IMG/VR virus record: IMGVR_UViG_2541047847_000004
Strand: one strand, 5' to 3'
Source: a virus
Taxonomy: Duplodnaviria > Heunggongvirae > Uroviricota > Caudoviricetes
Length of the DNA: 54,394 bases
This document shows positions 1 through 28,363 of the stretch, one piece after another. The position numbers were made by a program, and so were the translations under genes. Every line of letters begins with the position of its first letter. Position 1 is the stretch's first letter. The notes under the pieces are model-generated. The model was not told the DNA's origin. It searched no databases and saw only the letters and a list, made by a program, of their open reading frames with translations.

Positions 1-1209
1 ATGTCGGTTTTTCATAACTGGCTGCTTGATATCGCAAGCGGGAATTACTTTATCTACATCAAACGCCTTTCTGCAAACGACACTGGCGCAACAGGTGGCC
101 ATCAGGTCGGACTTTATATCCCCTCAAATATCGTTGAAAAGCTTTTTCCATCTATCAATCATACTCGCGAACTGAACCCTTCAGTCTTCCTTACTGCGCA
201 TGTATCATCCCATGATTGCCCTGATACCCAAGCACGCGCAATTTATTACAACAACCGTTATTTTGGTAAGACCCGAAACGAAAAAAGAATTACGCGCTGG
301 GGGAGAGGAAGTCCATTACAGAACCCTGAAAATACAGGAGCTCTCACAATTCTTGCTTTCAGGTTAAACGAACAGAACACTGACTGTTCCGAGGTAGATA
401 TATGGGTCTGCGTCAATCCCGATGAAGAGGATATCATCGAGTCTGCTATTGGCGAAATCATACCTGGAACCCTAATTTCCGGCCCTGCCGGACAAATTTT
501 GGGCGGATTGTCTCTTCAGCAAACTCCAGTAAATCATAAATATGTTATTCCTGAAGACTGGAAGAAGCGTTTTCCTTCTGGAAACGAAATTATTCAATAT
601 GCTGCTGGCCATTATGCTAAAAACTCCAAGGATCCAGATGAGCAACTGATTGACCGTCGGCGTGTCGAGTATGATATTTTTCTACTCGTCGAGGAATTAC
701 ATGTTCTTGATATTATTAAGAAAGGATTCGATTCTGTAGATGAGTTTATTGCATTAGCCAACTCTGTCAGTAATCGACGTAAATCAAGGGCAGGTAAATC
801 ACTTGAACTTCACCTAGAGAAGCTTTTTATCGAGCACGGACTACGGCATTTCTCCACTCAGGCAGTTACTGAAGGTAATAAAAAACCAGATTTCCTGTTT
901 CCTTCAGCAGAGGCATATCATAACGCTGAATTTCCTGTAGAAAACTTACGTATGCTGGCAGTAAAGACCACCTGCAAAGATCGCTGGCGTCAGATACTGA
1001 ATGAAGCAGATAAAATCCATCAGGTACATTTATTTACGCTGCAAGAAGGTGTTTCTTCAGCACAATACCGAGAAATGAAAGATGCGGGTGTCAGACTCGT
1101 TGTACCATCAACTTTACATAAAAAATACCCAGAAGCAGTTAGAGAAGAATTAATAACGCTCGGAGCATTCATTACTGAGCTGATAGAACTTTACACTGAA
1201 CTATCATAG
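1..1209 (+). CDS. ecoRIIR: Type IIE restriction endonuclease, EcoRII-like
   Basis: 402-aa ORF starting at base 1; N-terminus MSVFHNWLL...YIKRLSANDTGATGGHQVGLYIP matches my memory of EcoRII; convergent with a Dcm-like methyltransferase. Confidence 0.75.
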   Translation: MSVFHNWLLDIASGNYFIYIKRLSANDTGATGGHQVGLYIPSNIVEKLFPSINHTRELNPSVFLTAHVSSHDCPDTQARAIYYNNRYFGKTRNEKRITRWGRGSPLQNPENTGALTILAFRLNEQNTDCSEVDIWVCVNPDEEDIIESAIGEIIPGTLISGPAGQILGGLSLQQTPVNHKYVIPEDWKKRFPSGNEIIQYAAGHYAKNSKDPDEQLIDRRRVEYDIFLLVEELHVLDIIKKGFDSVDEFIALANSVSNRRKSRAGKSLELHLEKLFIEHGLRHFSTQAVTEGNKKPDFLFPSAEAYHNAEFPVENLRMLAVKTTCKDRWRQILNEADKIHQVHLFTLQEGVSSAQYREMKDAGVRLVVPSTLHKKYPEAVREELITLGAFITELIELYTELS

Positions 1210-1214
1210 GCTGA

Positions 1215-1237
1215 CTCCCGGCTTAAAAGGCCGGGAG
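1215..1237. terminator. GC-rich hairpin between the convergent R and M genes (possible bidirectional terminator)
   Basis: ctcccggc-ttaaaa-gccgggag inverted repeat in the 34-bp gap; no clear U-run on either strand. Confidence 0.35.
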
Positions 1238-1243
1238 GTGTTC

Positions 1244-2677
1244 TCAAGGCTGCCCAGTCTTACCAGCATCAGCAGAAACAGCTTTGAGGATATAGGGTTC
1301 CAGAAGTCTGGCAACGGCTTCAAATACTGGCACCACAACGGAGTTACCGAACTGCCGATATGACTGAGTATCTGAAACCGGAATACGGAATGGTTTCCCT
1401 CCAGGTTTTTCAAACCCCATAAGGCGTGCGCACTCTCGGGGAGTCAGCCTGCGTGGTCGACGAGCCTGGTTACTCTCATTCATAAAGTCAGCCTCTCCCG
1501 TTGCCATATCCCAACCACGATCAATAAGAATTTCTGATCCGTCTTTGTGATATCTGGCAGAAAGTGTGCGTGCAATGCTTTCCTTATTCTCAGGATTGAC
1601 CAACCCAAAGCCAAAACCATTCCCCTTGGCTGCATGCTTTTTGGCGTAGTTATAAAGGTACTCCCATAGTTTTGGCGTAAGTATATATTTACTGTCGACT
1701 ACAGGCTCCAGCAATTCACCAAATGATGGGCGGTGTTCCGGATAAAAACGACTGATATCACGCAAGGTAAACCCCTTGTGAATATTCAGATCTCGTCTAA
1801 ATCCGACCAGAACAATGCGTTCACGATGCTGAGGCAAAAAATGCTTCCCATCGATAATCTTTGGATCGTTTTTTCCCATTTCTGCAGCATCGGCAACTTC
1901 GTAGCCCAGCTCGTCAAGGGTCTCCATAATGACTTTGAAAGTTTTACCCTTATCATGGCTCTTCAGATTTTTGACATTTTCCAGCACAAAAATTGCCGGT
2001 TTTTTTGCTCGTATAATACGTGCCACGTCAAAAAAAAGTGTTCCTTGTGCTTCACATTCAAAACCATGCGCACGACCAAGTGAGTTTTTCTTACTAACAC
2101 CAGCAAGGCTAAATGGCTGGCACGGGAACCCCGCAAGAAGCACATCATGATCCGGCACATGCTCATCAATATATGCATAAGCATCCGTTTCCAATACATC
2201 GGTTTTATCACTCAGCGTGACTTCCCGAATATCGAGATTGAATTTATGCACCTGTTCATCGTTAAACCAGTTGGCCTTGTATGTACGCACAGCATCTTTA
2301 TTCCATTCACTGGTAAAAACACACTGACCTCCAATGGCCTCAAAACCTTTCCGTATCCCTCCAATTCCAGCAAATAAGTCAATGAAGCGGAAAGCATATT
2401 CCGGATGGTTTGCAGGTGGTTCTGGTAGCATCTTACGCAGAAGAGACTCTTCTACTGAAGTCAACGATTTTGGTAAACACTTGCCATTAATCCAGCGGTT
2501 AATGGTTTCACGGCTCCACTCATTTTTTCCGACTTTTCTCAGTAATTCAGCCACATACTTCTGATCATAGATTTCCAGCACTTTCTCGATAAGCTTTTTA
2601 TCATTTTCCTGTCGCAGCTTTTCTTCCGCCTCGGCTTCCTTCAGCAGATGCTGTGCCAACACTTCAAATTCAGACAT
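1244..2677 (-). CDS. ecoRIIM: DNA cytosine-5 methyltransferase (Dcm / M.EcoRII-like, CCWGG)
   Basis: Motifs [15 protein letters not shown] (motif I), GFPCQPFS (PC motif IV), ENVKNL (motif VI), strong resemblance to E. coli Dcm. Start moved to internal ATG at 2677 (GGAGGA Shine-Dalgarno upstream, gives 477 aa); ORF track start is 2719. Confidence 0.85.
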
Positions 2678-2895
2678 AATTCCTCCAAGGGGTCTAATGG
2701 GTGAAACTTTATCACTCATTCAACCCAGAAGGAAATGTTTTATCTGGATATTTAAACAGTGACTACAACGTAATCTAGCACTGGTGATGCTTTGTTAGGC
2801 ATAGAGAATCATTCTATATACGACTAATGACAGAAAAACAGCAGACAAGTAGTTTGTTCATAAATTAACGCATACAACGTGCCTGCGGTTTTTGA

Positions 2896-3852
<957 letters not shown>

Positions 3853-3909: not shown

Positions 3910-4464
3910 TCATTTATCTCCGACCGGAAACTTCTTATACAGTGTCGATATACCAACATCATAGATGATCGCCACCTTCTGGCGAGGAACGCCTGATGCA
4001 ATTAATCGCCCGGCCTGCGCCCATTGTTCTGGTGTAAGTTTGGGACGACGTCCACCAATTCGTCCCTGTGCGCGAGCAGCTTCCAGTCCAGCTTTTGTTC
4101 GTTCAACAATCAGTTCTCGTTCCATTTCAGCCAGGGCACCCATCACATGAAAGAAAAAACGCCCCATCGGTGTGCTGGTATCAATAGCATCCGTCAGGCT
4201 GCGAAAATTAACGCCACGTTCGCGCAACTCCTCAACCAGAATGACCAGATGCCGCATACTACGCCCTAGCCGATCCAGCTTCCAGACAACCAGAGTGTCA
4301 CCTGCCGATAATGTCCTGAGCAGTTTTTTCAGTCCCGGCCTTTCGGACTTTGTACCGCTTATCTTGTCTTCAAAAATCAGCTCGCATCCTGCACAGTTCA
4401 GCGCATTACGTTGTAGATCTGTGTTCTGGTCATTTGTTGACACACGTACATAGCCAATAAGCAT
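3910..4464 (-). CDS. pin: Serine recombinase / DNA invertase (Pin/Gin/Hin family)
   Basis: MLIGYVRVSTNDQ... catalytic-Ser N-terminus and C-terminal HTH typical of Pin; start set to the ATG at 4464 (184 aa) rather than track start 4500. Confidence 0.9.
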   Translation of the reverse strand: MLIGYVRVSTNDQNTDLQRNALNCAGCELIFEDKISGTKSERPGLKKLLRTLSAGDTLVVWKLDRLGRSMRHLVILVEELRERGVNFRSLTDAIDTSTPMGRFFFHVMGALAEMERELIVERTKAGLEAARAQGRIGGRRPKLTPEQWAQAGRLIASGVPRQKVAIIYDVGISTLYKKFPVGDK

Positions 4465-4490: not shown

Positions 4491-5039
4491 ATGATGCCAT
4501 TTGCTCGTTATTTCTGCATTTTCATAAACGTTGGTTTGGGAGAAGGTTCAGCATTACCTGTTGGTGCACCTGTTCCGTGGCCTTCAGAGACACCTCCAAC
4601 AGGCTGGCTGAAATGCAATGGAGCAGCTTTTTCTGCTGAAGAATATCCGGAACTGGCAAAGGCTTACCCGACAAATAAATTGCCTGATTTACGTGGTGAG
4701 TTTATTCGTGGCTGGGATGATTCTAGAGGGATTGATACGGGGCGTTCATTGCTAAGTGGTCAGGCTGCAACATTTATTCGTACAGCTTTGCAGGATTATT
4801 ACGGTTACGATCTGAATACTAATGTCAAAGTAGGTATCGCTTTTGCTACTGCTGATTCTGTTATAACCGTTGGAAACCCAGCTAATCCTAAAGCAGGAAA
4901 TAATAGCGATTATGTTCCTGCATCAGCAGATAACTCCATAATGGGTACTCAAAGGACAGCGGAGGATAATTTTACCGGGGCATGGATATCAATGCGCCCT
5001 CGTAACCTTTCATTTAATTACATCGTGAGGGCTGCATAA
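4491..5039 (+). CDS. Alternative tail-fibre C-terminal cassette (StfE-like), silent in the current orientation
   Basis: Encodes NVGLGEG... directly from the crossover site; lacks its own N-terminal fibre part; the track start at 4491 lies outside the segment so the real coding portion begins near 4546. Confidence 0.55.
   Translation: MMPFARYFCIFINVGLGEGSALPVGAPVPWPSETPPTGWLKCNGAAFSAEEYPELAKAYPTNKLPDLRGEFIRGWDDSRGIDTGRSLLSGQAATFIRTALQDYYGYDLNTNVKVGIAFATADSVITVGNPANPKAGNNSDYVPASADNSIMGTQRTAEDNFTGAWISMRPRNLSFNYIVRAA
4526..4545. repeat. Left inversion crossover site (pix/gix-like)
   Basis: aaacgttggtttgggagaag is the reverse complement of the 6418-6438 site (19 of 20 positions). Confidence 0.65.
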
Positions 5040-5641
5040 TGGATAATGCCGTATTAAATAGCGAGTTTATTGCCACGAAGGCGGGGGATATTACTGTCTA
5101 TAATTATAATGGTGAAACACGAGAATATATTTCCACATCAACTGAATATCTTGCTGTTGGTGTCGGTATTCCGGCATGTTCCTGTTTAGATGCACCAGGA
5201 ACATATAAAGCTGGTTATGCCATCTGCCGCTCTGCGGATTTAAACTCATGGGAATATGTGCCAGACCATCGCGGAGAAATCGTCTATAACACCGAAATGG
5301 GAGACGCCAAAGAAATCACAACTCCGGGTGATTACCCCGAAAATACAACCACTATCGCCCCATTAACGCCATACGATAAATGGGATGGTGAGAAATGGGT
5401 GACCGATACTGAGGCACAGCATCACGCCGCAGTAGACGCGGCAGAAGCACAGCGTCAGTCACTGATTGATACTGCAATGGCTTCCATTAGTCTGATTCAA
5501 CTGAAATTACAGGCTGGGCGGAAGCTGATGCAGGCAGAGACCTCCCGACTTAACACTGTGCTGGATTACATTGACGCGGTGACGGCAACAGATACCAGCA
5601 CCGCGCCGGATGTCATCTGGCCTGAACTGCCGGAGGAGTAG
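5039..5641 (+). CDS. tfaE: Tail fibre assembly protein (TfaE-like)
   Basis: 200 aa, follows the StfE-like cassette; typical Tfa N-terminus and C-terminal ...TSTAPDVIWPELPEE. Confidence 0.65.
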   Translation: MDNAVLNSEFIATKAGDITVYNYNGETREYISTSTEYLAVGVGIPACSCLDAPGTYKAGYAICRSADLNSWEYVPDHRGEIVYNTEMGDAKEITTPGDYPENTTTIAPLTPYDKWDGEKWVTDTEAQHHAAVDAAEAQRQSLIDTAMASISLIQLKLQAGRKLMQAETSRLNTVLDYIDAVTATDTSTAPDVIWPELPEE

Positions 5642-6053
5642 GCCATTCAATATCTGGCGCACTGGAAGTATCGACCAGCTCCAGTGCGTCCAGATAATCC
5701 AGCCACAAATTATATTGCGCCAGTTCCTCACCTTTCAGACGACCAATAGCCGCTTTACCAGCCCATTGTTTACTGTTCATATAATCGTTGGCCTGATTAA
5801 TCAATTGCTGCTTTTTCAGTTCGGCTGCAGCAATCTGTTCCTCATGTGTTGGTGGTGGAATTTCAGACCATGCAGGAAAACCATTTTCTCCAGCGATACG
5901 GATTTTTCCTTTCGGCGGTAATCCGGAAAACTCAATATACACTTGCTCATCAACTTCAACAGCATCATCTGGCCATGAGTCAGCTTGCGTGTAATCCTCT
6001 TTCATCTCCAAGGGATAGAAAGAGTTTGTAGTCGCGGAATATATGTAATTCAT
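5613..6053 (-). CDS. tfaP: Tail fibre assembly protein (TfaP-like)
   Basis: 146 aa downstream of the expressed fibre gene; 3' end overlaps tfaE convergently (5613-5641). Confidence 0.6.
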   Translation of the reverse strand: MNYIYSATTNSFYPLEMKEDYTQADSWPDDAVEVDEQVYIEFSGLPPKGKIRIAGENGFPAWSEIPPPTHEEQIAAAELKKQQLINQANDYMNSKQWAGKAAIGRLKGEELAQYNLWLDYLDALELVDTSSAPDIEWPTPPAVQAR

Positions 6054-6079
6054 TTTTCACTCCATAAAGTTAAAAGAAA

Positions 6080-6721
6080 TTAACACCCTAATGCGAAAAA
6101 TGAAGCACCGATACCGGGTACGCCTGCTCTGGAAATAAATTTCACCGGGTCCTGGTTATAACCGGCACAAGCTATATAGCCAACATTTGCACTGCCGGGA
6201 GTGTAATCCTGAGTCGCAAATACCCGCAGACATCTATTCGGAAATGCAATCGGAAAATAGGTTACTGTGTCCTGAGACGTCAGCGGAACATCAATTGGCC
6301 CCCATTGAATAATTAAACCGGATGGCAATTTTTGATATCCAGGAACTGAAGCAGAAAGCATAAAACTACCCATATCAGGTATCTGATTCGCCCCTGTCCC
6401 TACATTTCTTTTAGCCGCTTCTCCCAAACCAAGGTTTTCGAGAGCCGTTTTCACGGTGCCATCCGATTTGATATCGTCAAACGGATTCTTGCGGCTTAAC
6501 AGCAGCGCACGAAGCGCGGTAAGCAGCTGGTCATGCCGCCCCTTCTCCAGGCTGGCACCGGATGCCTCCACCACGCCACAAAGCTCTTCCTGCAACATGT
6601 CAAAGTAGTCATCATCCAGATCGGTGGCAGGCGTGCCAGTCTGGGGGTTACCACGGGTAAAACCGTTCTTACCCGCGCCGAACTTATCCTTCTGCGCGGT
6701 TTTCGTGTCTATACGATGCAT
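6080..6721 (-). CDS. stfP: Side tail fibre protein (StfP-like); C-terminal ~113 aa lie inside the invertible segment
   Basis: 213 aa; the crossover site encodes ENLGLGEA at the constant/variable junction. Confidence 0.7.
6418..6438. repeat. Right inversion crossover site
   Basis: cttctcccaaaccaaggtttt, inverted copy of 4526-4545, located inside stfP. Confidence 0.65.
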
Positions 6722-6724: not shown

Positions 6725-7309
6725 TTACTCCGGATATTTAAAAATTACGTAGGTATGCGACGGGCAGAGTTTGTTAAGCACACACTCGACAACGGTGTCA
6801 CCCCAGATACGCAGTGCGGAATCACAGGGATCGCCACATGTCATCCAGGTGGTGTTGGTGGTGGTTGGCATGTTGACCTGCCAGTAATACCGCCATTCCG
6901 GCGCATTCACCGCGTCAGTACAGGCCGATGAGCAGGTGAACGTGCTTTTGTCGTATCGCGTGATGGTGGCATCTGGTCTGCCCAGGGCAGCAAGCTGTGC
7001 AAGATAAAAATCCTCGTTGATGCCGCCCGCCAGGTTAACCTTCGCATCCAGCCGTTGCTGACGCTGGCGAAGGGTCTGCGTTCCCGCCGGAATACATTCA
7101 TCCGGCAGACCGCACAGACGCTCCCAGCGGTTTATCAGTTCAGTGGTGGTGCGCGGATCCAGCTCCCGCATCAGGGCATCCGCACGCTGATGAACACGGG
7201 TTAATGACGGTGCCGCACCGGCAATCGCCGGATCGCTGGCTGACCACGCCGGACCAGGCGGCAACAGTGCCGATAACAGGCGGATGTAATCATCGTTTGT
7301 CACGTCCAT
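6725..7309 (-). CDS. Phage tail protein (YmfQ / Mu gp48-like)
   Basis: 194 aa immediately upstream of the tail fibre gene, same length and position as e14 YmfQ. Confidence 0.6.
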
Positions 7310-8358
7310 GAAATCGTCCCCAGTACCGCCAGTTCGTTTTTCGCAATGGAGATATTGTCCACCGGTGCAAGCAACTGATGGCTGTATTCCCCGTTCGCAC
7401 CGGAAATCGCCTCACTGATACGCGATACCTTCAGTTCTCCCTGCGGATAACCATCACGCAGCAGGAACGAACGCAACTCCGCGGTAATGGCAGCCCGTAT
7501 TTCCGGTGTGTCCGGCGTCACGCGGATATGAAAATCCACCGTATGTGCCACCGGCCTGAATACATACAAATCAGAGCCTGCCACCGGGGCCAGTGGCCCG
7601 ATATGTTGTCTTGCTGCCGTTTCCGTTGATTCTTCCGGAATGGGATTAATCAGGTCACTGCTGGCAATCATCACACCGACAGTTCCCGTTCCCATCCAGT
7701 GACGGTATGTCCATGCGCGGGTAATGCCGGGCACTTCTTTAGCCCAGACGACATAGTCCCCGTCAGCCCCGCCCTGAGGCGTCCAGTAATACCGCTCAAT
7801 GACGCGGGCGCGCCACGTTTCCAGCTCTTCAGTATCAAATCCACCTGTCAGGGTATCTGCCACGCCGGAAGACGGCAGACCATTAACCGGCGTGACCAGG
7901 ATTAATGACGTACCGTCGTCAGCGTTACCGACCGCGCCTGCACTTGAGCAGGCGATCGGCACGCGCAGGACACCACCGGAGCTGGTTGCATCGGCAGTTG
8001 CCGTGTACTGAACCAGGTCATCGCGCTGAATAACACTCCCGGCGGTCACCTTCAGGCCATCGCTGACACCTTCCCAGCGCATATACCCGCTGGCAGCCGT
8101 GGCCCCCTTGCGCGGACACCGTTTCATCGCAGCATGTCGCGCCAGCCAGGACTCATCGCACAGGTCAGGCAGCATGTTCATTGCCAGATAATCGATGTAC
8201 CCGTAAACCGTATGCAGCGCCGCCGCATACACCTTTGCCCGCACGTCTTCATCCATGCGCCGGAGCGTGTCGCTGACGTCCAGCCTGGCGAATAAATCGT
8301 TACGGAGCATACTGATATTTTCTGCCAGCGTCGGGCGCTGAAATTCACTGTCCGCCAT
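7300..8358 (-). CDS. Baseplate J-like protein (Mu gp47-like)
   Basis: 352 aa in a conserved Mu-like baseplate gene order. Confidence 0.7.
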
Positions 8359-8773
8359 GCGTTATCGCACTCCACAGATCATCAAAAGAAATCATTACCG
8401 GTCCGTCACGACGCCAGAGAGTGATACTGTTACCCAGTTCATTAATCCCGGTGCGGCGGATATCCAGATCAATACGGGACACCACGCCGTCATCAATCAT
8501 CCATTGCAGGCATTCGCGGATATACCCCCTTACTGTCTGCACCAGCTGATTGGTCAGTTTGCTGCGCTGAAGCAGCCACAGTCGGGAGCCGTAACGGTCA
8601 TTCTGTACCGCAGGCCAGGTATCCCCCCACCATCCCATCGGGACGTCGGCATTGTCATCAGGCTCCGCCCGCCGCCAGGTGAACAGGGAAATCACCACAG
8701 CGCGGGTCAGCGGCTCCAGCGGTGCGCTGGCGCAGGTGCGTTTACCGTTCATCGTCAGCCACAGTTCCATCAT
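8345..8773 (-). CDS. Baseplate protein (Mu gp46-like)
   Basis: 142 aa between the baseplate spike and baseplate J genes; synteny-based. Confidence 0.55.
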   Translation of the reverse strand: MMELWLTMNGKRTCASAPLEPLTRAVVISLFTWRRAEPDDNADVPMGWWGDTWPAVQNDRYGSRLWLLQRSKLTNQLVQTVRGYIRECLQWMIDDGVVSRIDLDIRRTGINELGNSITLWRRDGPVMISFDDLWSAITHGGQ

Positions 8774-9318
8774 GCCTCCATCGCTTTATCAGGTTTGTCG
8801 GTGTTACTGCCCTGACCGTTCTCTCTGTGACGATGCCCGTTATAGGCAAGCCGCATCGCTGACATGGTGGTGCCGCCGGAGTCGCACAGGTCTTTCACCT
8901 GTCCGGTCACTTCCAGGTCCATTTCAAAACGTGCTCTGGGCGCATTACGAAACGTGATCGTTTTACCTGCACCGTCCACCACGATACCCGCCCGGGTCAG
9001 CGTCACGGACTGCCCCTGATCGTCATAGACAGCCACCTCACCCGTCTGCAGCCCTTTCAGGCGGTAGCGCCGGTCCGACACCGTAACAACCACCGCATGA
9101 GAACGGTCGCCATCCGGAAACAACACCACCGCTTCCGCACCGCTGTTTGCCCTTGCGGTAAAACCGTAGGGTTCAAGATGTTCAACCCCGGCTTTGGGTT
9201 CACCGGCAATCAGGAACACATCCACGGTCTGACATTTCGTGGCGGCACTGATGCTTTTCACCACGGCCCGCCCAATCAGGCCGAGGAGTTGTCGCTGCAT
9301 GGCTTCAATCGTCCTCAT
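8770..9318 (-). CDS. Baseplate assembly protein V / spike (Mu gp45-like)
   Basis: 182 aa, position and size consistent with gpV-type spike. Confidence 0.6.
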   Translation of the reverse strand: MRTIEAMQRQLLGLIGRAVVKSISAATKCQTVDVFLIAGEPKAGVEHLEPYGFTARANSGAEAVVLFPDGDRSHAVVVTVSDRRYRLKGLQTGEVAVYDDQGQSVTLTRAGIVVDGAGKTITFRNAPRARFEMDLEVTGQVKDLCDSGGTTMSAMRLAYNGHRHRENGQGSNTDKPDKAMEA

Positions 9319-10397
9319 CAGAACGGGTCCTCCTGTACTCTGGCTTTTTTCTTTTTCCGCGCGCCGGGGGCTTCGGGTTCAGGCAGATAAGCATCAGGTG
9401 GGCCGACACGGATTTCCGTCAGGGTGCCGTTCTGGTCCTGAGTAAACGTGACTTCCGAGACAAGCAGTTCGGTATTGTCGAAACCACAGACCGGATCGAA
9501 GACAATCACCCGCTGGTTGGGCTGCCACAGCGTACCGTTACCCTGTCGCCAGCCCTGCACCACATAGGTGGTTTCATCCGTCCGCGCCGCCCGTTGTCGG
9601 GCTTCAAAGTCAGCACGCGCAATACAGCCTGCCCCCGTAGCCTGCCCTGTCTGCCTGATATACATCGGACGATAACGGGCAATAAATGCGTCCTCTGTGC
9701 GGGCCCGCAGCGCAGTTGTGGTGGCCTCACCGAAATCATCGTCGTTTCCGGCACGCTGCCCCGCCACCTGGTAAACAGAAAACCGCTCCCGGATACTCTT
9801 CTCCGTATCGCAGGAAAGGATGTTTTCCCCGAGTACCAGCGCGGTATGTGCCCGCGTTGAGCCAATACCGCCAATCACCAGCCTGCCGTGCGGGTCGTCA
9901 TAAGCCAGCGCCTGCTGCTGACCGAGTATTTTGTTAATCACCTCGATCACCGTTTCACCGTGATCAGGCTGGACATCAGGAATAACACCCGACGGCGCAC
10001 CGCTGTTCACCACCTCAATGCCGAAGGGCGCAGCAAGCGCCTGCGCAATCTGTACCAGTGATCGTCCGTTAAACTGTGTCGGTTCGGCTGCACAATCAAT
10101 CAGGTCAGCGGTCAGACTGCGTCCGGCAATACCGGTGCTGACCGAACGGGCATCGTAACGAACGGGCGTCGCCTCCACCCAGCCGGTGATCACCAGCTCA
10201 TCACCAATCAGCACCTCCACTTTTGAACCGTTTTTAATGCGCGGCTGAAGCGTGGTGATACCCTCATCACCCGGCCACTGGCGGGTGATCTCCACACTGA
10301 AATCCCGCGCCAGTCGTTCAACACCGGCACCGATGCGCACCGATGTCCAGCTATTCCACTCCCGGCCATTTACCCGTAGCGTGACATTGTCGTTCAT
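9318..10397 (-). CDS. Baseplate hub / tail protein (Mu gp44 P-like)
   Basis: 359 aa following the DNA circularisation protein gene. Confidence 0.6.
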   Translation of the reverse strand: MNDNVTLRVNGREWNSWTSVRIGAGVERLARDFSVEITRQWPGDEGITTLQPRIKNGSKVEVLIGDELVITGWVEATPVRYDARSVSTGIAGRSLTADLIDCAAEPTQFNGRSLVQIAQALAAPFGIEVVNSGAPSGVIPDVQPDHGETVIEVINKILGQQQALAYDDPHGRLVIGGIGSTRAHTALVLGENILSCDTEKSIRERFSVYQVAGQRAGNDDDFGEATTTALRARTEDAFIARYRPMYIRQTGQATGAGCIARADFEARQRAARTDETTYVVQGWRQGNGTLWQPNQRVIVFDPVCGFDNTELLVSEVTFTQDQNGTLTEIRVGPPDAYLPEPEAPGARKKKKARVQEDPF

Positions 10398-11764
10398 TGC
10401 ACTGGCACCTTCAGAGGGATCACCGGCACAAAGCCGGGATGCGTAATGGCATTACGCCGGATAATGTCCGCATCACGCGCCGCGTTATCAAACCAGGTCG
10501 CCGCCAGCACCAGCGCGGGTAAAACCTCATCCGGTGTGCGCTGAATGATCCGTGCAGACTGTTCAAGGCGCGTGTTGATATCCGCATTCAGATCTGCTTT
10601 CACCCGGCGCAGTGCCAGAAACAGCGCATCACTGGTTGTACGGGACAACTCCTTATCAATTGCCGTATTCAGTGTGTCGCGAATGTCAGTCAGTTCTTCC
10701 CACGTTGGCAGGTCAACCGTGTTTTTCACCGCCGGTGCATTGTTCAGTGCCGGATGCGTGACAGAAGGCCAGCCGGTGCTCTGCGCGGGTGTTGTTGACT
10801 GCCCCACTGTGGCATTCTGCATCACCGCGGAAGTTGTGGGCGCAGGCAATCGTGTGACGGCATACGCCGCTTCGCTGATTGCGGTAGTACGAAGGGTGCT
10901 GGCAACCACGTTACGCTGCTGCGTCGCCGTGGCGGTGGTTTTACTGTCCGTTTTCCAGACGCCGCGCGGTTGCAGATCGCTGCCGAGGCTGACACCGGAA
11001 AGCGTTTTGATCATGGTGACCAGGTCGCTGGCGTTACCATAAAGGCGTTTCCCGGTACGCCACATTTTCTGCACCTGCTCAACGAAATTTTTGCCTGACG
11101 ATGGTGGCGGCAGAAGTACCGAGATATCCCCCTGCAACAGCCTGGCAGCATCCGATACGGCAGAATCCACCACTTTCATCGCATCAGAAACATACCCAAG
11201 CATTGTGCTGGCATTACCGATAACGTCGTTCTGCACAAAATCCGCCACGCCATCGATACTGAAACCGCTGAAGCTGTCACTGATGCAGTCATCCAGTGCA
11301 GAACAGGATGACATCAGCGTCTGCGCCGTCGCCGCACCTGATGTGGGGTAAGAGAGTTCTCCCGCTTCGACAAACTTCAGGTCAAAGCGGACAATACGCC
11401 CTTCACTCTTCGATGTGCTGACCCGAACCTCTCCGTCAACACAGACTTTCAGCTCACCGTAAGTCGGATGGACAAGCGTGCCGGGACCGGGTTTATTCAG
11501 CGCGTCAATCAGGCGATCGCGCTGGTCAAAGCAGTCATCTCCCACCACATAAGCCGTGATGGACGGGCGGAAAGTGATTTTCCCCAGGTCTTCGGTATAG
11601 GGTTTGTCGCGGTTCGGGTATTCGTGCGTTTCCACACGACGACCGGTTCCCGCACTTTCTTCTTCAACCTTAAACGGCACACCGCGAAATGACGCGTCCT
11701 GAAGTCTGTCTTTCCACGTCATATAAACTCCGTACATAAAAAATCCCACCGGAGTGGGACTCAT
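10394..11764 (-). CDS. DNA circularisation protein N (Mu gp43-like)
   Basis: 456 aa after the tape measure gene; alternative start at 11722 (GGAG + 5 nt) would leave a hairpin + T-run at 11743-11765 as an intra-operon terminator. Confidence 0.55.
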   Translation of the reverse strand: MSPTPVGFFMYGVYMTWKDRLQDASFRGVPFKVEEESAGTGRRVETHEYPNRDKPYTEDLGKITFRPSITAYVVGDDCFDQRDRLIDALNKPGPGTLVHPTYGELKVCVDGEVRVSTSKSEGRIVRFDLKFVEAGELSYPTSGAATAQTLMSSCSALDDCISDSFSGFSIDGVADFVQNDVIGNASTMLGYVSDAMKVVDSAVSDAARLLQGDISVLLPPPSSGKNFVEQVQKMWRTGKRLYGNASDLVTMIKTLSGVSLGSDLQPRGVWKTDSKTTATATQQRNVVASTLRTTAISEAAYAVTRLPAPTTSAVMQNATVGQSTTPAQSTGWPSVTHPALNNAPAVKNTVDLPTWEELTDIRDTLNTAIDKELSRTTSDALFLALRRVKADLNADINTRLEQSARIIQRTPDEVLPALVLAATWFDNAARDADIIRRNAITHPGFVPVIPLKVPVQ

Positions 11765-11782
11765 TAACAGATTAATTTTTCA

Positions 11783-13618
11783 TTACCTGCCAAAGCGCGT
11801 ATAGCCAACATCATGGCTGACATCAAAACCGCTGGATCGCGTTTCCATAACCCGCATACCCGGAGGCGAATTCACAAAAGAGACCTTGATCTCACCATCA
11901 ACTTTTGGCGCAGTAGCTTTATTAATCATGAAGGGATTCGGGCCTGTGGCATCGGAGGCGTTGTTTGACTGAGCCAGATCTACCGCCGGATAAGGTGTGT
12001 ATCCCCGTGCCGGTATTCCCGTCCCATAAGCATCATAAGCACCCGCGCCCCACTGCGCAGAGTTAATGGCATCGACCGTGTCTCCGGAACTGTCGGTAAA
12101 CCACTCAATAATTGGCTTCAGCTTGTCCCACATATCCTGAAACCACTTAACAACCGGCCCCCAGTTATTGATCACCATCCCCAGCGGCGACCAGGCAAAA
12201 ACTTTCTTAAGGAGTTCCCAGCCAGCCTCAAAATAAGGACCAATGGTTTCCCAGAGTTTCTTAAAATAAGGTCCGACAACATCCCAGTTAGTGATAATTA
12301 ATCCCGCAGCCAGGGCTATCGCCGTCGCAATCATGCCAATCGGCGTCATCGACATGATCCTGCTGACAATACTGATGGCACCGCCAACTCCCATCAATCC
12401 CAGTTTCAGAATCGCAAGACCGGCAGCAAGCCCGACGACGCCGCGAATAACCCGGGGATTTTCATCCGCAAACTTCGTGAATTTTTCCCCCAACTCCCCC
12501 AGCCATTGCGTGATATTTTTAGCGTCACCAGAAAATGCGCCGCCAATAGCTGCAAGACCGTTAGTTGCGGTCCCCGTCATTGCCTCCCACAGGTTGGACA
12601 GCGTACCAAGCTGTGCCTGAACACGTTTATTCAGGCTGGCCTGTTTATTCATCTTCTGCTGGATCTGATCGTAACCATCCTTTCCTTTATCGATCAGAGC
12701 ATTGACCACCTGAAGGGTTTCGGCATCATCACCAAATATTGCCTTAAGTACACCTGTTCGCTTAACGTCGGTCAGTTTTCGCAGCTTTGCCAGTTGCTTA
12801 AACATGTTATCAAGACCGCCAAAACTCCCTTTGCCGTCAGTAAAATCGAGCTGCACTCCGAGTTTCTGGCGGGCCATGACTTTATTGACGTCCCTGATTT
12901 TCTTAACGCTTAATCCGGACTGGATAACTTTTCGCAGGGCATTACCTGCCGACTCCCCGTTCATCCCCATCTGATCCATCATGACGCTGATAGGGGCAAG
13001 GCTCTGTGCAGCCTGAAGACCGTCCTTATTCACCATCTTCAGAACAGAACTGGTTTTAGTGAAGAAGGACAACATGTTGGTATCGTCAACGCCCAGATAA
13101 AACGCTTTCTGGATAGTGTCGAACAGCCCCATCATGTCTTCTGACGCCGTTCCGGTAGCATCCTGCATCTTTGCAGCAAACTCGGCAGCCGCTTCCGGTG
13201 TTTTTTTCAGTTGTACCGCAAGATAAGCTGTCGCTTTACCCACACCACCCAGAATGTTTTCTGCCGGGATCCCCTGACGCACCAGCATCTGCATCATGTT
13301 CTGGAAATCAGCCGTTGTACCGGGTAGCTGGTTACCCAGGCCAATAGCCAGTTTATTGATGTCCTGAAAGCTCTTTCCAACCTCGCCGTTCGCATCCATC
13401 ATGGCGACTTTCAGCCCGGTGGCGGCGTTTTCCTGATCGGCATAAGATTTCAGGGAAAGCGTCAGACCCGCTGCCAGTCCGCCACCAAGCGGCAGCCCAC
13501 CCTGTGACGCTTCTTCCGCCTGGCGTTTAAATCCCCGGATTTTCTTTTGCATTTTCGACAGCGCCGGAGAAAGCCTGTCGACACCGGTGATCAACGCCTT
13601 AAGCTCAAATTCAGCCAT
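11783..13618 (-). CDS. Tail tape measure protein
   Basis: 611 aa, Ala/Gly-rich with predicted coiled-coil and C-terminal hydrophobic stretch; downstream of chaperone frameshift pair. Confidence 0.8.
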   Translation of the reverse strand: MAEFELKALITGVDRLSPALSKMQKKIRGFKRQAEEASQGGLPLGGGLAAGLTLSLKSYADQENAATGLKVAMMDANGEVGKSFQDINKLAIGLGNQLPGTTADFQNMMQMLVRQGIPAENILGGVGKATAYLAVQLKKTPEAAAEFAAKMQDATGTASEDMMGLFDTIQKAFYLGVDDTNMLSFFTKTSSVLKMVNKDGLQAAQSLAPISVMMDQMGMNGESAGNALRKVIQSGLSVKKIRDVNKVMARQKLGVQLDFTDGKGSFGGLDNMFKQLAKLRKLTDVKRTGVLKAIFGDDAETLQVVNALIDKGKDGYDQIQQKMNKQASLNKRVQAQLGTLSNLWEAMTGTATNGLAAIGGAFSGDAKNITQWLGELGEKFTKFADENPRVIRGVVGLAAGLAILKLGLMGVGGAISIVSRIMSMTPIGMIATAIALAAGLIITNWDVVGPYFKKLWETIGPYFEAGWELLKKVFAWSPLGMVINNWGPVVKWFQDMWDKLKPIIEWFTDSSGDTVDAINSAQWGAGAYDAYGTGIPARGYTPYPAVDLAQSNNASDATGPNPFMINKATAPKVDGEIKVSFVNSPPGMRVMETRSSGFDVSHDVGYTRFGR

Positions 13619-13793
13619 GTGTGCGTTTCTCCTGCTCTATCCTGTTTGCCTGACTGACCAGTAAGGGAATTTCACTGATCGGCATATTCAGCAATTCGAA
13701 AGGATTAATGCGCCAGTAACTGGCGCAGTCAAAGAAGCGATCAGTGAGGTATTCAGCCGTCAGGCCTGGAGGAAAAAACCGGCCACAAGCCAC
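13611..13793 (-). CDS. Tail assembly chaperone -1 frameshift extension
   Basis: ORF in the -1 frame overlapping the 3' end of the chaperone ORF; slippery site at 13772-13778 (gaaaaaa on + strand). Confidence 0.45.
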   Translation of the reverse strand: MACGRFFPPGLTAEYLTDRFFDCASYWRINPFELLNMPISEIPLLVSQANRIEQEKRTHG

Positions 13794-14029
13794 GCCGCTG
13801 CATTCAGGTCTGCCGGAGACATCTGGTCGACAGAGCTTTGCGGCACTTTCGCCAGCCGCACGATGTATTTCGATACCACATGCGCCAGAAGTCTGACGGA
13901 CTCATCCTGATTCATCTGGTAGGGATATCCCAGCTCGCGGACATCTTTCCCGGTGGGCTCATCAAACTCCAGTACGGAGAGTGTCTCGCCATGAGCGGTA
14001 ATCGGTTTCTTTAACTCAAGCTCTTTCAT
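13760..14029 (-). CDS. Tail assembly chaperone (frame-0 product)
   Basis: 89 aa between tail tube and tape measure genes; ends just after a T-TTT-TTC slippery heptamer. Confidence 0.6.
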   Translation of the reverse strand: MKELELKKPITAHGETLSVLEFDEPTGKDVRELGYPYQMNQDESVRLLAHVVSKYIVRLAKVPQSSVDQMSPADLNAAAWLVAGFFLQA

Positions 14030-14385
14030 TACTGGTAATCCCCTTCTTCACCGTGGAACTCAAGATCAACCGTGCCTTCTTCGGCATTATGGTTCGCTTC
14101 GCCGTGCAGCCAGGCAGACGACAGTACATAGACCTGACCGTTCGCCAGCTCGGCAGTGATTGTCATCTCATCAGACGAGGTGATTTTGTTCACCGGAAAA
14201 TTCTTCGGCACCTTGAAGGTCCCTTTGACATAAGGCGCACGGTGAGTTTCCTTGCGGTCCACTGAGCCGTCCAGGCCGATGATGTCATCATTGACCGTCC
14301 TGTTCATGGGCACCTCAATGCCGCCGGTCAGCGATAGCTGCTGACCGTCAATTTTGAAATAACAGGTTCCCCCGATACGGGCCAT
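14029..14385 (-). CDS. Tail tube protein
   Basis: 118 aa immediately downstream of the sheath gene. Confidence 0.7.
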   Translation of the reverse strand: MARIGGTCYFKIDGQQLSLTGGIEVPMNRTVNDDIIGLDGSVDRKETHRAPYVKGTFKVPKNFPVNKITSSDEMTITAELANGQVYVLSSAWLHGEANHNAEEGTVDLEFHGEEGDYQ

Positions 14386-15881
14386 TATGCAGACTCCTCT
14401 GAATACTGAAGACGGAACTGGTTAACCACGGCAAAGACACGCAACTGGTTAACATAGTCAGGCGGGAACAGCGTGTTCAGGCGGTTCGGATCGCTGGCAT
14501 CACGCTCCACAACCAGGTACTGCTTAAACAGTTCGTAGTTTTCCACGATCCCCGCACGCTCGAGCTGACGGTAGGTTGCCAGCAGTTCCCCTTTGATCAC
14601 CGCCGGGGTGACAATCGCCTGACCGGGACCAAAGCGGGTACCGTCACTGGCAAGCTTGTGACGCCCGTACTTACTGGTAATGACGGATTTCAGTTTGCGC
14701 AGTACATACGCACTGGTATGCAGCGTCTCGCTGTCGAGGTAGCTGTTATCCGCAACCCCGTAAGCATTTTTCCTGTACGTGGTGACATCACGCTGAATGC
14801 GCAGCACCCCGCTTTCGACATACGCCGTTGCCACGCCATGAGACAGCAGGGTCTGTTGTTCGGTCATCGTGAACCGTTTCCCCTTCGGCGCAGGCAGCAT
14901 ACCCACCAGCTCACCGGTCTGCGTGGGACGTGCCGGATCGTTGCGAATAAACACCGCTGCGCGGGCGGCACGGCTTGCCGCCAGCTCGTCGGCAGGCGTC
15001 TGGGTCTCTTTTTCGTACCCCGCCAGGGTAATGTGCTGCTGGTTAAACTGGTCACCTGCGGTCACCAGTTCTGACAGCGTGCCGATCTTTGCCGTATACA
15101 CATGACCATACAGCTGACGCGCATAGCTCCAGCGACCGCTGGTATCGTTCATCTCGGTCACCAGCGTGTTAACGGAGGCCGTGTCGTTGAACGGAAGACC
15201 GATATAATCAAACGGCTCATCCGCCATTGCAGCCACCGCGCCGGTGAGAACAGGAGCCCCCGTTCCGGCGGTCCCCGCCGCCACGGCAATCTGTACGCCC
15301 GCAGGCAGCACTTCTCCCCCACCGAAGCCGTAGTAATTGAGGCTGACTGGAATTTCATTCCCGCAAAGCCCCTTATGACGCGCGGTCAGTGTGACCACGC
15401 CAGCCGAAGATGAGGCCGTAAACGGCAGGGCCGGAACGGCATTGATGGCATCCTGGATACTGCCGGCAATCGTCGCGACGTTATCGCCATTGGTCACCGG
15501 TGCCTGCACGCGGGTACGTCCCACATAAACATTCACCGTGCCGGTTTCGGTTGCCGCCCCGGTCACCGTCAGCGTAACCGTTGCCGCCGCGCCTGTGGCT
15601 TCCGGAACGGCAATCACATACAGCTCGCCAAACGGGTCAGTCTGGCGATAAGCCTCGACCATACGCGCCAGCTGACTTCCCGCACCACAAATCTGGCGTG
15701 CATAGTCTGCCGACGGCATCAGTACCAGACTGTTGGCAACAATCTCTGCACCGTTATTGGCATGACCAATCAGCAGCGATGCTCCGCTGTCCTGTGCAGT
15801 ATTCGCCGCCTGGTTATCCATTTCCGCATAAAACAACGGAACCAGCGTATTCGACGGAATGGTGTTAAAGCTTATCGTCAT
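14385..15881 (-). CDS. Contractile tail sheath protein
   Basis: 498 aa, Mu gpL-like size and position. Confidence 0.85.
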   Translation of the reverse strand: MTISFNTIPSNTLVPLFYAEMDNQAANTAQDSGASLLIGHANNGAEIVANSLVLMPSADYARQICGAGSQLARMVEAYRQTDPFGELYVIAVPEATGAAATVTLTVTGAATETGTVNVYVGRTRVQAPVTNGDNVATIAGSIQDAINAVPALPFTASSSAGVVTLTARHKGLCGNEIPVSLNYYGFGGGEVLPAGVQIAVAAGTAGTGAPVLTGAVAAMADEPFDYIGLPFNDTASVNTLVTEMNDTSGRWSYARQLYGHVYTAKIGTLSELVTAGDQFNQQHITLAGYEKETQTPADELAASRAARAAVFIRNDPARPTQTGELVGMLPAPKGKRFTMTEQQTLLSHGVATAYVESGVLRIQRDVTTYRKNAYGVADNSYLDSETLHTSAYVLRKLKSVITSKYGRHKLASDGTRFGPGQAIVTPAVIKGELLATYRQLERAGIVENYELFKQYLVVERDASDPNRLNTLFPPDYVNQLRVFAVVNQFRLQYSEESA

Positions 15882-16035
15882 CGGTATTCACCTTTTTATT
15901 CACGCGCCGGATATCACCCGCTGCTTCACGGCGCAGCCAGTAGTTGTTCTCGTCAACATTTCGCCCTTCGGCGGGCAAAAGGTCGCCGCGGGCAGGATCA
16001 GGAACTGACCGCCCTTTAACAGGTTTGACAAACAT
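15865..16035 (-). CDS. Small tail-region protein (56 aa, not in ORF track)
   Basis: ATG at 16035 with GAGGA upstream; MFVKPVKGRSVPDPARGDLL...; overlaps sheath start. Translated by hand. Confidence 0.35.
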   Translation of the reverse strand: MFVKPVKGRSVPDPARGDLLPAEGRNVDENNYWLRREAAGDIRRVNKKVNTDDDKL

Positions 16036-16043
16036 GAGGATCC

Positions 16044-16604
16044 TCAGGAAGGAAGGGTTATTTCGGTGTGATGTTCGATATCGCCGTCAGGCCCGTTACC
16101 GGGCTCGAGATAATCAACATCAATCGCCAGCGTTTGCAGTTCATCCAGACTGTTCAGATCATCCTGCTGGCGGGTATCGTCTTCAGTCAGCTCGCTGATG
16201 ACCGAAAAATCGAACTGATAAATCAGCTCATGACGATTCAGATCCAGCAGCGTGCCGCCGTCATAGGTAATCGGGTTACCGCACGCCTCCGGGTTCCAGC
16301 CCAGCAGAGCCTTAAAGAGCATCTGCCGGACATCGTCCACCACATCATACGAGGCAAACTGACCGCGCTCATCACGCCCGTTACTCAGTATGACAACCAC
16401 GGAGAAACCCTCTTTCAGCTCCTGCCAGTAGTCGGTCTGGCTTTTGTTTTCTCCCGGAGAATCATCACCCGGTACAACATATGCCGCCGGGAGTTTCAGC
16501 TTTCCGACCTCCGGCAGATTTTTGAACTGGGCCGCGCCTGCAACCCGGTTTTCAAAATACGGACAGCGGGCACGCAGTGCAGCAATAACAGGCGTCAGTT
16601 TCAT
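16044..16604 (-). CDS. Phage virion protein (tail completion/terminator-like)
   Basis: 186 aa in the head-tail joining block; function from position only. Confidence 0.45.
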   Translation of the reverse strand: MKLTPVIAALRARCPYFENRVAGAAQFKNLPEVGKLKLPAAYVVPGDDSPGENKSQTDYWQELKEGFSVVVILSNGRDERGQFASYDVVDDVRQMLFKALLGWNPEACGNPITYDGGTLLDLNRHELIYQFDFSVISELTEDDTRQQDDLNSLDELQTLAIDVDYLEPGNGPDGDIEHHTEITLPS

Positions 16605-17107
16605 CTGTGTCGTCGCTCCGGCTTCAGTGATTTACGCAATTCCCGCGCCAGAAAATAGCGTGTCCAGCTGCGGTTCTTTTCAAGCGTTTCCACCATGAAG
16701 TTATTACGTGGAGCCAGTCGCCAGCCGCTGCCACCGGATGCGCCACGATGATGGCTGCGACGACGCTTTGCCCCTCGCCTCACGCCATAGAACAAAAAAG
16801 CCGGATAAAAATCACCGGTGATACGGCGGTTTCCCTCTCCATTACGCTGGTTAGGGGCTATACGTGCCATAAAACCAGGGCGATGTTTACTGGCTCTGGG
16901 TACCATGTAACCAATCGAACGAGCCAGGCGTCCGGTCTGATAACCGGGGTTTTCACCCGGTGCCGACCGCGCACGGCGCATCACCAGCCGACGGGCATCA
17001 CGCATATGACGCTGACCAATCGTGACAAACGCCCGCCGGACACGGGCGCGGTTAAAGCGCATCTCCGCGGGCTGCTGAAAATCAACGTGCAAAAAGGAAG
17101 TCGTCAT
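16601..17107 (-). CDS. Arginine-rich phage morphogenesis protein (HK97 gp10-like)
   Basis: 168 aa, position between head-tail adaptor and tail genes. Confidence 0.45.
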   Translation of the reverse strand: MTTSFLHVDFQQPAEMRFNRARVRRAFVTIGQRHMRDARRLVMRRARSAPGENPGYQTGRLARSIGYMVPRASKHRPGFMARIAPNQRNGEGNRRITGDFYPAFLFYGVRRGAKRRRSHHRGASGGSGWRLAPRNNFMVETLEKNRSWTRYFLARELRKSLKPERRHR

Positions 17108-17492
17108 TGTTGCCTCCGTGACTCTGCCTACATTCGCCCAGCTCCGTACACTCCAGCAGCAGAAAGCGCCGCGCCCCGTTCAGATCGCGCTGACGTTTCA
17201 CCCGGTACACACTGTCACCGCAGACCACCTCATAATCAGCGGTGATCCCCCGGCGGTAACGAATGGTGATGTAATGGGTGATGGCGTCCCCGGTCTGCGC
17301 GGTTTCCTGCCAGGTGGTGGCACTGGTCTGGATAACCTTCGCCCATGTCCGGAACGTAACCGGGTATTGAGGCTCCACGCCAAAGTTATCCGCGGGCATA
17401 TCCACCCGCAGGCGGATCAGGACGCATTTATTCAGTTCACCGGGGTCCGGCAGAATGTAAGTTGCGCTGGTCTGCGCCTGACGAATTTTCAT
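17082..17492 (-). CDS. Head-tail adaptor / head closure protein
   Basis: 136 aa, synteny downstream of connector gene. Confidence 0.5.
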   Translation of the reverse strand: MKIRQAQTSATYILPDPGELNKCVLIRLRVDMPADNFGVEPQYPVTFRTWAKVIQTSATTWQETAQTGDAITHYITIRYRRGITADYEVVCGDSVYRVKRQRDLNGARRFLLLECTELGECRQSHGGNNDDFLFAR

Positions 17493-17812
17493 TGCGGAAA
17501 GTACCTGTACGGGCCGACAAGCCAGCCAAAACTCTGCGGCATGTCGAGTTTCTCCACTTCCGTAACCGACGAGCGGTTTTCGTAAAAATGGCTGATAAGC
17601 ATCAGCATCCCCAGACGAATATCATCCGGCAGGTGCAGCCCGTCCGGATCGCTGTCCGGAATGGATTCATCCGGTGCATAGAGCTTCCGGTTCAGATACG
17701 TTTCCGTCCGCTTTTGCGCCGCACAGGCCAGCAGTTGCAGATGGCGGTCATCAGCATCGAAATCCTCATCCAGCCGGAGTTGGGCTTTAATCTCTTCCAT
17801 TGTCAGAAGCAT
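17489..17812 (-). CDS. Head-tail connector protein (gp6-like)
   Basis: 107 aa directly after the capsid gene block. Confidence 0.5.
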   Translation of the reverse strand: MLLTMEEIKAQLRLDEDFDADDRHLQLLACAAQKRTETYLNRKLYAPDESIPDSDPDGLHLPDDIRLGMLMLISHFYENRSSVTEVEKLDMPQSFGWLVGPYRYFPQ

Positions 17813-17814
17813 AC

Positions 17815-18015
17815 TCAGCTCTCTTTACTGGTCGTGGCTTTTTTCTCTTTTGCCGCTTTACTGCTTTTTGCACTGGTTCCGCGCTCAGCTAACCCGGCCT
17901 GAAGTGCAATCTCCTGCACCCGGGCAGGAAGCGCCCCGTCGTCATACTCACCGGCCCGAATGACCTCAACACGCATACCGTCCGGTGACCATTTCAGATC
18001 TTGTTTCAGGATCAT
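17815..18015 (-). CDS. Small phage protein downstream of capsid gene
   Basis: 66 aa, Lys/Ala-rich C-terminus; possibly capsid decoration or DNA-binding. Confidence 0.35.
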   Translation of the reverse strand: MILKQDLKWSPDGMRVEVIRAGEYDDGALPARVQEIALQAGLAERGTSAKSSKAAKEKKATTSKES

Positions 18016-18064
18016 GATTCTTCACCCGTCAGAACAGGGGGCGCGGTTCCGCGCCCCTGAATGA

Positions 18065-19270: not shown

Positions 19271-19284
19271 CGTATTTCTCCTGA

Positions 19285-19971
19285 TTAGAAGTTCAGATTT
19301 TTCAGTGCATTCAGTGCAGAGCCCACATCCTCAGCGTCGCGCAGGGACAGTGCGCCATAGCCCCCGGCCATGAATGCTTTGGCCTGGGTACGGGAGAGTC
19401 CGACATCACGCAGGACTCTTTCGATTTTTTTCTGTTCGGGGATTTCCCCGCGGGCCAGCGCGTTCTTGACGTCGCTGATCCGCGCCTCGTCGTTAGACGG
19501 AAACGTCACCAGACTGACTTCCCAGAGGTCGATTTCTTTCAGCAGAAAGGCTTCTTTCGTCCGGTCGTATTCCCAGTCCTTCAGGACGTACCCAATAGAA
19601 AGGCCGGTTAACGAACCGGCCTTCATGTGTGCATGTGCGCGTTTTGCCAGGGGATCATCATCAATGAGCAACCGCCCCCTGACGTAAAGCCCGACATCGT
19701 CTTCCTTCATTTCGGTGTAAACACCGATGGGTTCATCCATGCGGTGCTGCCAGAGCAGCGCAGGTAACGCTTTTCTGTCACTCCACGCCCGCAGGGAAGC
19801 AGCAAATGCCCCGGACATCACCACATCATCGTGGCTGTCCTTTACACCAAAGACGGAGCCATACCCTTCAAACTCACCGGAGTCACTGACAGATTTCAGA
19901 CTCAGCGGTACATCAAGACGTTGTTTCGTCTGCATTGGCGTTATCCTTCTGCTTACCGGCTTTACTGCCAT
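19285..19971 (-). CDS. Prohead protease (HK97 family)
   Basis: 228 aa between portal and capsid genes. Confidence 0.75.
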   Translation of the reverse strand: MAVKPVSRRITPMQTKQRLDVPLSLKSVSDSGEFEGYGSVFGVKDSHDDVVMSGAFAASLRAWSDRKALPALLWQHRMDEPIGVYTEMKEDDVGLYVRGRLLIDDDPLAKRAHAHMKAGSLTGLSIGYVLKDWEYDRTKEAFLLKEIDLWEVSLVTFPSNDEARISDVKNALARGEIPEQKKIERVLRDVGLSRTQAKAFMAGGYGALSLRDAEDVGSALNALKNLNF

Positions 19972-21154: not shown

Positions 21155-21336
21155 TATTTACCTCCGCCGACAGACGACTGTGTACGGTCGAGATATCGCG
21201 CCACCAGCCACGACCAGAACAGACACAACGCCCCGGCAACAACAAACCCCGCCGGGGGATAAATCAGCCAGGCACCATACGCCAGCAAAAGCGCCCCCAG
21301 CACGCCCACCAGAGGCGCGAGAATCAGCATGATCAT
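21154..21336 (-). CDS. Small hydrophobic protein between terminase and portal
   Basis: 60 aa, two predicted TM helices. Confidence 0.35.
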
Positions 21337-21347
21337 AATTACCTCAG

Positions 21348-23081: not shown

Positions 23082-23094
23082 GATTCGATGATTT

Positions 23095-26027: not shown

Positions 26028-26045
26028 TGATGATTTTATAATAAT

Positions 26046-26068: not shown

Positions 26069-26079
26069 ATTATTGATAT

Positions 26080-28362: not shown

Positions 28363-28363
28363 C

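Follow-up and report, generated by a model that had tools for sequence, protein, structure and literature searches.

An EcoRII-type restriction-modification pair beside a CMoRE nuclease gene at the attachment-site end of a temperate myovirus related to e14 and SfII/SfV

The EcoRII restriction-modification (R-M) system has usually been described as plasmid-borne (PMC2993543). On conjugative plasmids the genes ecoRIIR and ecoRIIM converge with about 34 bp between their stop codons, and they encode a two-domain endonuclease (R) of 404 amino acids, represented by the structures 1NA6, 3HQF and 3HQG, and a methylase (M) that begins with a DNA_meth_N domain. A related methylase, Dcm, is encoded by the dcm-vsr locus of Escherichia coli K-12; it belongs to the same subfamily (PRK10458) and presumably shares the CCWGG target. 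Here we describe an EcoRII-type pair in a stretch of 54,394 nucleotides of viral DNA (IMG/VR record IMGVR_UViG_2541047847_000004, Caudoviricetes), which we call the window. The window pair has the same two-domain R, the same DNA_meth_N domain in M and the same convergent arrangement as the plasmid system, but its DNA is only about 80% identical, its R has 402 amino acids, and it lies in a chromosomal prophage, where it adjoins a gene for the modification-dependent nuclease CMoRE. The enzymes are close homologs of the textbook system and have already been annotated by RefSeq. The prophage end in which they lie has known counterparts in e14, a heavily deleted prophage of E. coli K-12 which carries a restriction gene, mcrA, between pin and the attachment site, and in the Shigella phages SfII, SfV, SfI and SfIV, which carry accessory genes in the same slot, from the tail-fiber assembly gene to attP-int.

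The R-M pair very probably belongs to the accessory cargo of a temperate myovirus of the SfII/SfV/e14 group, which is full length and integrated at ssrA and which carries the pair at its attachment-site end. A complete phage of the same family, the circular record CP081794 (43,671 bp), contains the pair within its genome, and its gene order is tail-fiber assembly gene, acyltransferase, CMoRE, M, R, ssrA-like attachment (att) site, DinI and integrase. We looked up exact copies of the R protein and obtained ten distinct neighborhoods; M, CMoRE and the baseplate and tail-fiber genes of this phage are present in all ten. The outward neighbor of R in these contexts is smpB/ssrA in seven, paoD in two and a MarR/SPATE island in one, and the inward neighbor of CMoRE is pin, an acyltransferase gene or a ClpP-like gene.

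The alternative to phage cargo is that the pair resides in the chromosome as an islet downstream of ssrA, adjoining the prophage but lying outside the mobile phage genome. Such an islet would fit the observation that in about 247 of the 262 R-carrying genomes R comes directly after an ssrA-type 3' end with its terminator region, that the cassette starts exactly at the ssrA att core, and that the base composition of the cassette is unlike that of the phage body (GC content of 0.42-0.45 for the cargo and 0.51 for the body). However, the circular phage record places the pair between CMoRE and the integrase, this phage end, with the pair, also occurs next to paoD and next to the MarR/SPATE island, and R is accompanied by CMoRE and the phage tail-fiber end in each of the ten contexts. 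Furthermore, in strain ETEC1717, which matches the window at 100% over positions 1-4600, a P4-like satellite parts ssrA from R and the spacer preceding R nevertheless stays with R. This spacer, the 165 bp before R in every arrangement, corresponds to the terminator region of native ssrA in a diverged form (91.6%); because it remains with R whichever element lies upstream, it is the phage's own att arm. The occurrence of R-M in a circular phage and, with the same phage end, at sites other than ssrA leads us to reject an independent islet, which is largely refuted and in our judgement highly improbable.

On one side the cassette is flanked by CMoRE and on the other by the ssrA 3' end and terminator, in the copy that the phage carries. 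Its inner boundary in the window is at positions 2870..2888 (GCATACAACGTGCCTGCGG), where one member of an imperfect direct repeat of 19 bp is found; in alignments, relatives that carry CMoRE and lack R-M continue unbroken across this point into a spacer. In copies located away from ssrA the repeat brackets the cassette (positions 2870-2888 of the window, 4720-4770 in L004 and approximately 32190-32240 in L006). The order in such copies, as seen in NT1F10 and in the circular phage, is the spacer that these relatives have, ending in a second, slightly different version of the 19-mer, a 28-nt ssrA 3' end, the 165-bp terminator copy, a 75-nt leader, R and M, and finally the 19-mer in the form found at window positions 2870-2888; the 28-nt ssrA 3' end is degenerate in the circular phage. 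The contiguity of the relatives without R-M, together with the repeat-bracketed copies, therefore indicates that R-M constitutes a discrete insert, approximately 3.2 kb long, whose outer end begins at the att core of ssrA. It may have arisen through aberrant excision, through the fusion of two elements that had both integrated at ssrA, or through an insertion that duplicated its target.

The R gene occupies positions 1..1209 on the plus strand and, as the preliminary description of this DNA had noted, its ATG is exactly at base 1, where it opens an open reading frame (ORF) of 402 codons. The same description had called R EcoRII-like, and domain analysis agrees: Pfam assigns EcoRII-N (PF09217) to residues 16-163 (E=4e-61) and EcoRII-C (PF09019) to residues 227-391 (E=2e-71), the EcoRII structure 1NA6 aligns over the full length of the protein (residues 1-401, E=4e-242), and the PADLOC profile REase_II also matches (E=1e-233). 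The protein is 87% identical to the plasmid EcoRII enzyme. In the alignment with 1NA6 the motifs KSLELHLE, KKPDFLF, AVKTTCK and ILNEAD are unchanged, and all four of what we take to be the catalytic residues (E271, D299, K324 and E337 in EcoRII numbering) are conserved. Position 88, within the effector domain, is an arginine in R and an alanine in the crystallized 1NA6 mutant. By its sequence R is thus a full-length member of the EcoRII family of type IIE endonucleases, in which an N-terminal effector domain (EcoRII-N) is fused to a catalytic domain of the PD-(D/E)XK type (EcoRII-C).

M is encoded on the opposite strand (positions 1244..2677, minus), so that the two genes converge, as had been proposed, with 34 bp separating their stop codons. 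A GC-rich hairpin at positions 1215..1237 lies between the stops, with a 10-bp stem, a centroid energy of -18.6 kcal/mol and no U-tract. It is a possible bidirectional terminator, although the evidence is weak: its energy does not differ significantly from that of shuffled sequences (z=-1.56), and a consensus terminator scan did not call it. M is a C5-cytosine methyltransferase of the M.EcoRII/Dcm type with an N-terminal repressor-type domain. Pfam identifies DNA_meth_N (PF18284, E=7e-27) and the C-5 methylase domain (PF00145, E=5e-78), and the protein scores 927 bits against the NCBIfam model PRK10458 of the Dcm subfamily, for which the cutoff is 710. The methylase motifs FxGxG, PCQ, ENV, QxRxR and GNSV are present, the last of them seen as GNSVVV in the alignment with plasmid M.EcoRII. 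Translation of M almost certainly starts at the ATG at 2677 (MSEFEV..., 477 amino acids) and not at 2719, the position to which the pair had been extended, because a GGAGG sequence lies 5 nt upstream and the M.EcoRII and RefSeq starts agree with this choice.

The comparison of M with Dcm bears on whether the methylase could simply be the chromosomal dcm-vsr locus. Plasmid M.EcoRII is the closer of the two to M, at 91% identity; the identity of M to K-12 Dcm is 69%. In K-12, dcm lies at another locus, between yedJ and yedA, and vsr overlaps its 3' end, whereas the 3' end of M faces R, a restriction gene with which it is paired, and no vsr-like ORF was found within positions 1-4000 of the window. 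In addition, 5359 of 5426 complete E. coli genomes (98.8%) have dcm-vsr as a separate locus. The earlier assignment of the methylase to prophage cargo is therefore upheld.

CMoRE, also known as PD-T4-3, is encoded between M and pin (positions 3079..3852, plus strand) and is a GIY-YIG type IV nuclease of 257 amino acids. The PADLOC PD-T4-3 profile is covered in its entirety by the protein (E=2e-140), and 253 of 257 residues (98%) are identical to PDB entry 9U75, CMoRE of E. coli O157:H7, which together with 9U7U represents the known counterpart of the window gene. The tyrosines of the GIYxY-YIG motif (Y17, Y19 and Y31) are retained, and this single gene encodes the characteristic architecture of a GIYxY-YIG nuclease followed by a domain at the C terminus that senses modification. 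The nuclease CMoRE, which is present in 838 of the 5426 complete genomes, degrades DNA of T-even phages that contains 5-hydroxymethylcytosine (5hmC) or glucosyl-5hmC, and its affinity for 5-methylcytosine (5mC) or unmodified DNA is far lower (PMC12923530). The low affinity for 5mC makes the nuclease compatible with M. The location of this gene corrects the view that the R-M pair is directly beyond pin, since CMoRE intervenes. Likewise, the suggestion that the pair fills the mcrA slot of e14 is right as to the prophage end and wrong as to the exact position, which is held by CMoRE with R-M one step further outward. Another modification-dependent nuclease thus takes the place that mcrA has in e14.

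The remainder of the prophage is a full-length, SfII/SfV-like temperate myovirus which is a relative of e14 and not e14 itself. The pin gene (positions 3910..4464, minus strand; annotated pinE, with 91% DNA identity to e14 pinE) encodes a Din-family serine invertase with Resolvase and HTH_7 domains. It is followed by an invertible tail-fiber segment of 1.9 kb (positions 4526..6437), which is bounded by Pin crossover sites at 4526-4545 and 6418-6437 (a 20-nt inverted repeat, 95% complementary) and contains two opposed sets of tail-fiber tips, each with its own assembly gene. Matches to Sf phages and e14 define the prophage body at positions 6725..37514, which encodes a Mu-like baseplate, tail, HK97-type head, lysis, replication and immunity functions; its 17.6-kb morphogenesis region is 97-98% identical to the Shigella phages SfII, SfI, SfIV and SfV and to Escherichia phage vB_EcoM-689R6. 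A tyrosine integrase with Arm-DNA-bind_2 and Phage_integrase domains is encoded at positions 37723..38895 (plus strand), and the capsid, portal, terminase and integrase ORFs are all intact.

A BLAST comparison of the window with e14 yields five collinear blocks of 87-98% identity (pin/stf; tfa; stfP-ymfQ-jayE; beeE-ymfR-aaaE; oweE-ymfM-ymfL), from which we infer that e14 is a deletion derivative of a phage of the window type. The two share a lineage, pin and the invertible segment. Homology does not extend past the final base of pin; neither mcrA nor intE of e14 has a DNA match in the window, and the integrase gene of the window has none in e14. The K-12 order is stfE-pinE-mcrA-attR, just as the preliminary description had given it (pin, then mcrA); its label of an e14-type prophage is apt with regard to the collinear homology but fails with regard to the icd site, intE and mcrA next to pinE, since the window prophage uses ssrA, has an unrelated integrase and carries CMoRE and R-M.

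At its far junction, positions 40910..40941 (plus strand), the prophage has 32 nt that repeat the 3' end of ssrA (31 of 32 nt identical to ssrA); this copy doubles as the left junction of a P4-like satellite. The native ssrA downstream region and terminator follow at 52735-52886, and then glaH at 53417-54394. Both ends of the window coincide exactly with gene boundaries: R has its start codon at base 1, and the stop codon of glaH is at base 54394. In BLAST comparisons the satellite is situated between ssrA and R in ETEC1717 and after the prophage in the window, while in EC21Z-147 the ssrA end lies 234 bp before R. The exact arrangement of the window is absent from the collection of complete genomes.

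Comparison with relatives of e14 supports the proposal that the pin-distal end is an exchangeable cargo site. The slot from the tail-fiber module to the attachment site contains mcrA in K-12 e14 and in vB_EcoM-689R6, an acyltransferase gene with gtrA, gtrB and gtrII in SfII, CMoRE alone in many E. coli prophages, and CMoRE with R-M in the window lineage. The Sf phages lack pin, and their cargo consists of O-antigen modification genes (acyltransferase, gtrA, gtrB and a type-specific gtr) and includes no nucleases. The DNA beyond CMoRE varies widely even among copies with an identical Pin protein. We also considered a retron I-C reverse transcriptase (RT) and IetA, encoded beyond CMoRE in other genomes, as slot cargo and dropped them; the RT and IetA may lie outside the prophage because the shared sequence stops before them.

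The ends of temperate phages are known to carry accessory and defense genes (PMC9519451). The defense hotspots of P2 and P4, cited in that paper, are fixed positions in a temperate phage with conserved flanks that receive interchangeable defense systems, as the slot described here may do; they differ in belonging to another phage family and another position. A literature search returned no prior account of the R-M pair in a prophage or of the slot as a hotspot. It is conceivable, although we consider it doubtful, that the att-proximal end of SfII/SfV/e14 phages is an uncatalogued defense hotspot which the EcoRII cassette entered as an integrase-less module with ssrA-att-like repeats, captured by fusion of two ssrA-integrated elements or by aberrant excision. 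If so, accretion at att sites would be a route by which temperate phages gain restriction systems, and the near-universal dcm of E. coli would face a chromosomal, phage-borne EcoRII adversary in addition to the plasmid one.

The R allele is present in 262 of the 5426 complete genomes (approximately 5%), with no copy below 99.3% identity, and of 267 placements 263 are chromosomal. In E. coli 13C1079T (L024, 3326-9400) the array ssrA-R-M-CMoRE is kept beside a pin pseudogene and the structural genes of the prophage have been lost, a pattern of decay that resembles the retention of mcrA by e14 in K-12.

By homology, a plausible mode of action can be proposed for the prophage end. M would methylate the inner cytosine of CCWGG and would probably repress its own promoter through its N-terminal domain; such autoregulation of M.EcoRII has been reviewed (PMC12707154). 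R is predicted to be auto-inhibited by its N-terminal effector domain and, in view of its 87% identity to the plasmid enzyme, to cleave unmethylated CCWGG when at least two sites are engaged. A lysogen would thereby restrict incoming phage or plasmid DNA that lacks Dcm-type methylation. CMoRE in turn would act on T-even phages, whose DNA, with its hydroxymethyl- or glucosyl-cytosine, type II enzymes cannot cut, and the prophage end may thus provide two complementary nucleases. In a natural isolate, an RM island with an HNH endonuclease, which is not of the EcoRII type, and PD-T4-3 have been found to restrict non-overlapping sets of phages additively.

Several points count against a working defense cassette at ssrA. 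CCWGG specificity and activity are predicted from protein identities of 87-91%, and a benefit for defense is presumed. The position next to ssrA in the source genome is deduced from relatives, the left end of the prophage being outside the window. Consensus scans for promoters and terminators over positions 1-4700 gave matches at chance level, and CCWGG is not avoided in the prophage body (90 sites observed and 73 expected from base composition). Moreover, with dcm-vsr already in 98.8% of complete E. coli genomes, most donor DNA from E. coli would be methylated beforehand and so immune, which would limit the benefit for defense and make M largely redundant.

The last of these points lends some weight to the idea that the cassette mainly serves itself or the phage, either as an addiction module that stabilizes the prophage or through methylation of progeny DNA by M against EcoRII-type enzymes of future hosts. 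EcoRII systems give post-segregational killing (PMC2993543), R-M and CMoRE have been retained next to the gutted prophage of 13C1079T, the near-clonal allele suggests a recent spread, and classic defense looks weak where DNA is mostly Dcm-methylated. However, chromosomal Dcm, described as a 'molecular vaccination', blocks host killing by EcoRII (PMC2993543), and given the near-universal presence of dcm, addiction should rarely work in E. coli; self-protection of the phage, for its part, does not need R, and R is intact in nearly all copies. We therefore regard a mainly self- or phage-serving role as rather unlikely, while noting that it is compatible with defense and not exclusive of it. A further possibility is that R has lost its activity or is in decay and that the methylase alone is of consequence, M being an orphan-like paralog of Dcm, with which it is redundant, so that loss of R would be tolerable. 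The full length of R and the conservation of its four catalytic motif positions and of R88 speak against decay, as does the finding that R is annotated as an intact coding sequence in 29 of 30 copies among those listed and that 261 of 262 genomes have a copy with at least 80% of the gene's length; decay of R is accordingly a very remote prospect. The reading that we prefer remains that of R-M as accessory cargo of the phage.

The integrase side of att is variable as well: the window has a three-gene cluster, ETEC1717 has DarTG, e14 has lit/ymfD/ymfE, and vB_EcoM-689R6 has a DUF262 pair. The window cluster (positions 38887-40757, minus strand, between the integrase and the far att) encodes a protein of 303 amino acids with a weak match to HATPase_c_2, a STAS-like DUF4325 protein of 108 amino acids and a protein of 205 amino acids without a match; none of the three has a match in PADLOC. 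The genes found at the equivalent position in relatives make this cluster a defense candidate, and it may be an undescribed defense system. The P4-like satellite, a tandem integrant (positions 40942-52717) whose site is the displaced 3' end of ssrA, carries an integrase, psu, delta, sid and an alpha primase, with a SIR2-HerA defense pair at 42327-45205 between int and psu. Within positions 40942-52720, CCWGG occurs 8 times where 19.5 sites are expected from base composition (Poisson P of approximately 0.003).

The R-M pair is a clear but ordinary case of virus-borne defense genes in a swappable end slot, and it leaves knowledge of how the enzymes act unchanged. It is of use for the annotation of prophage ends and for the choice of strains in phage work. 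A close EcoRII homolog on a temperate phage, beside a nuclease directed at modified cytosine, offers a testable case of layered, complementary restriction, at a slot which members of this phage group have refilled with mcrA, O-antigen genes, CMoRE or R-M.

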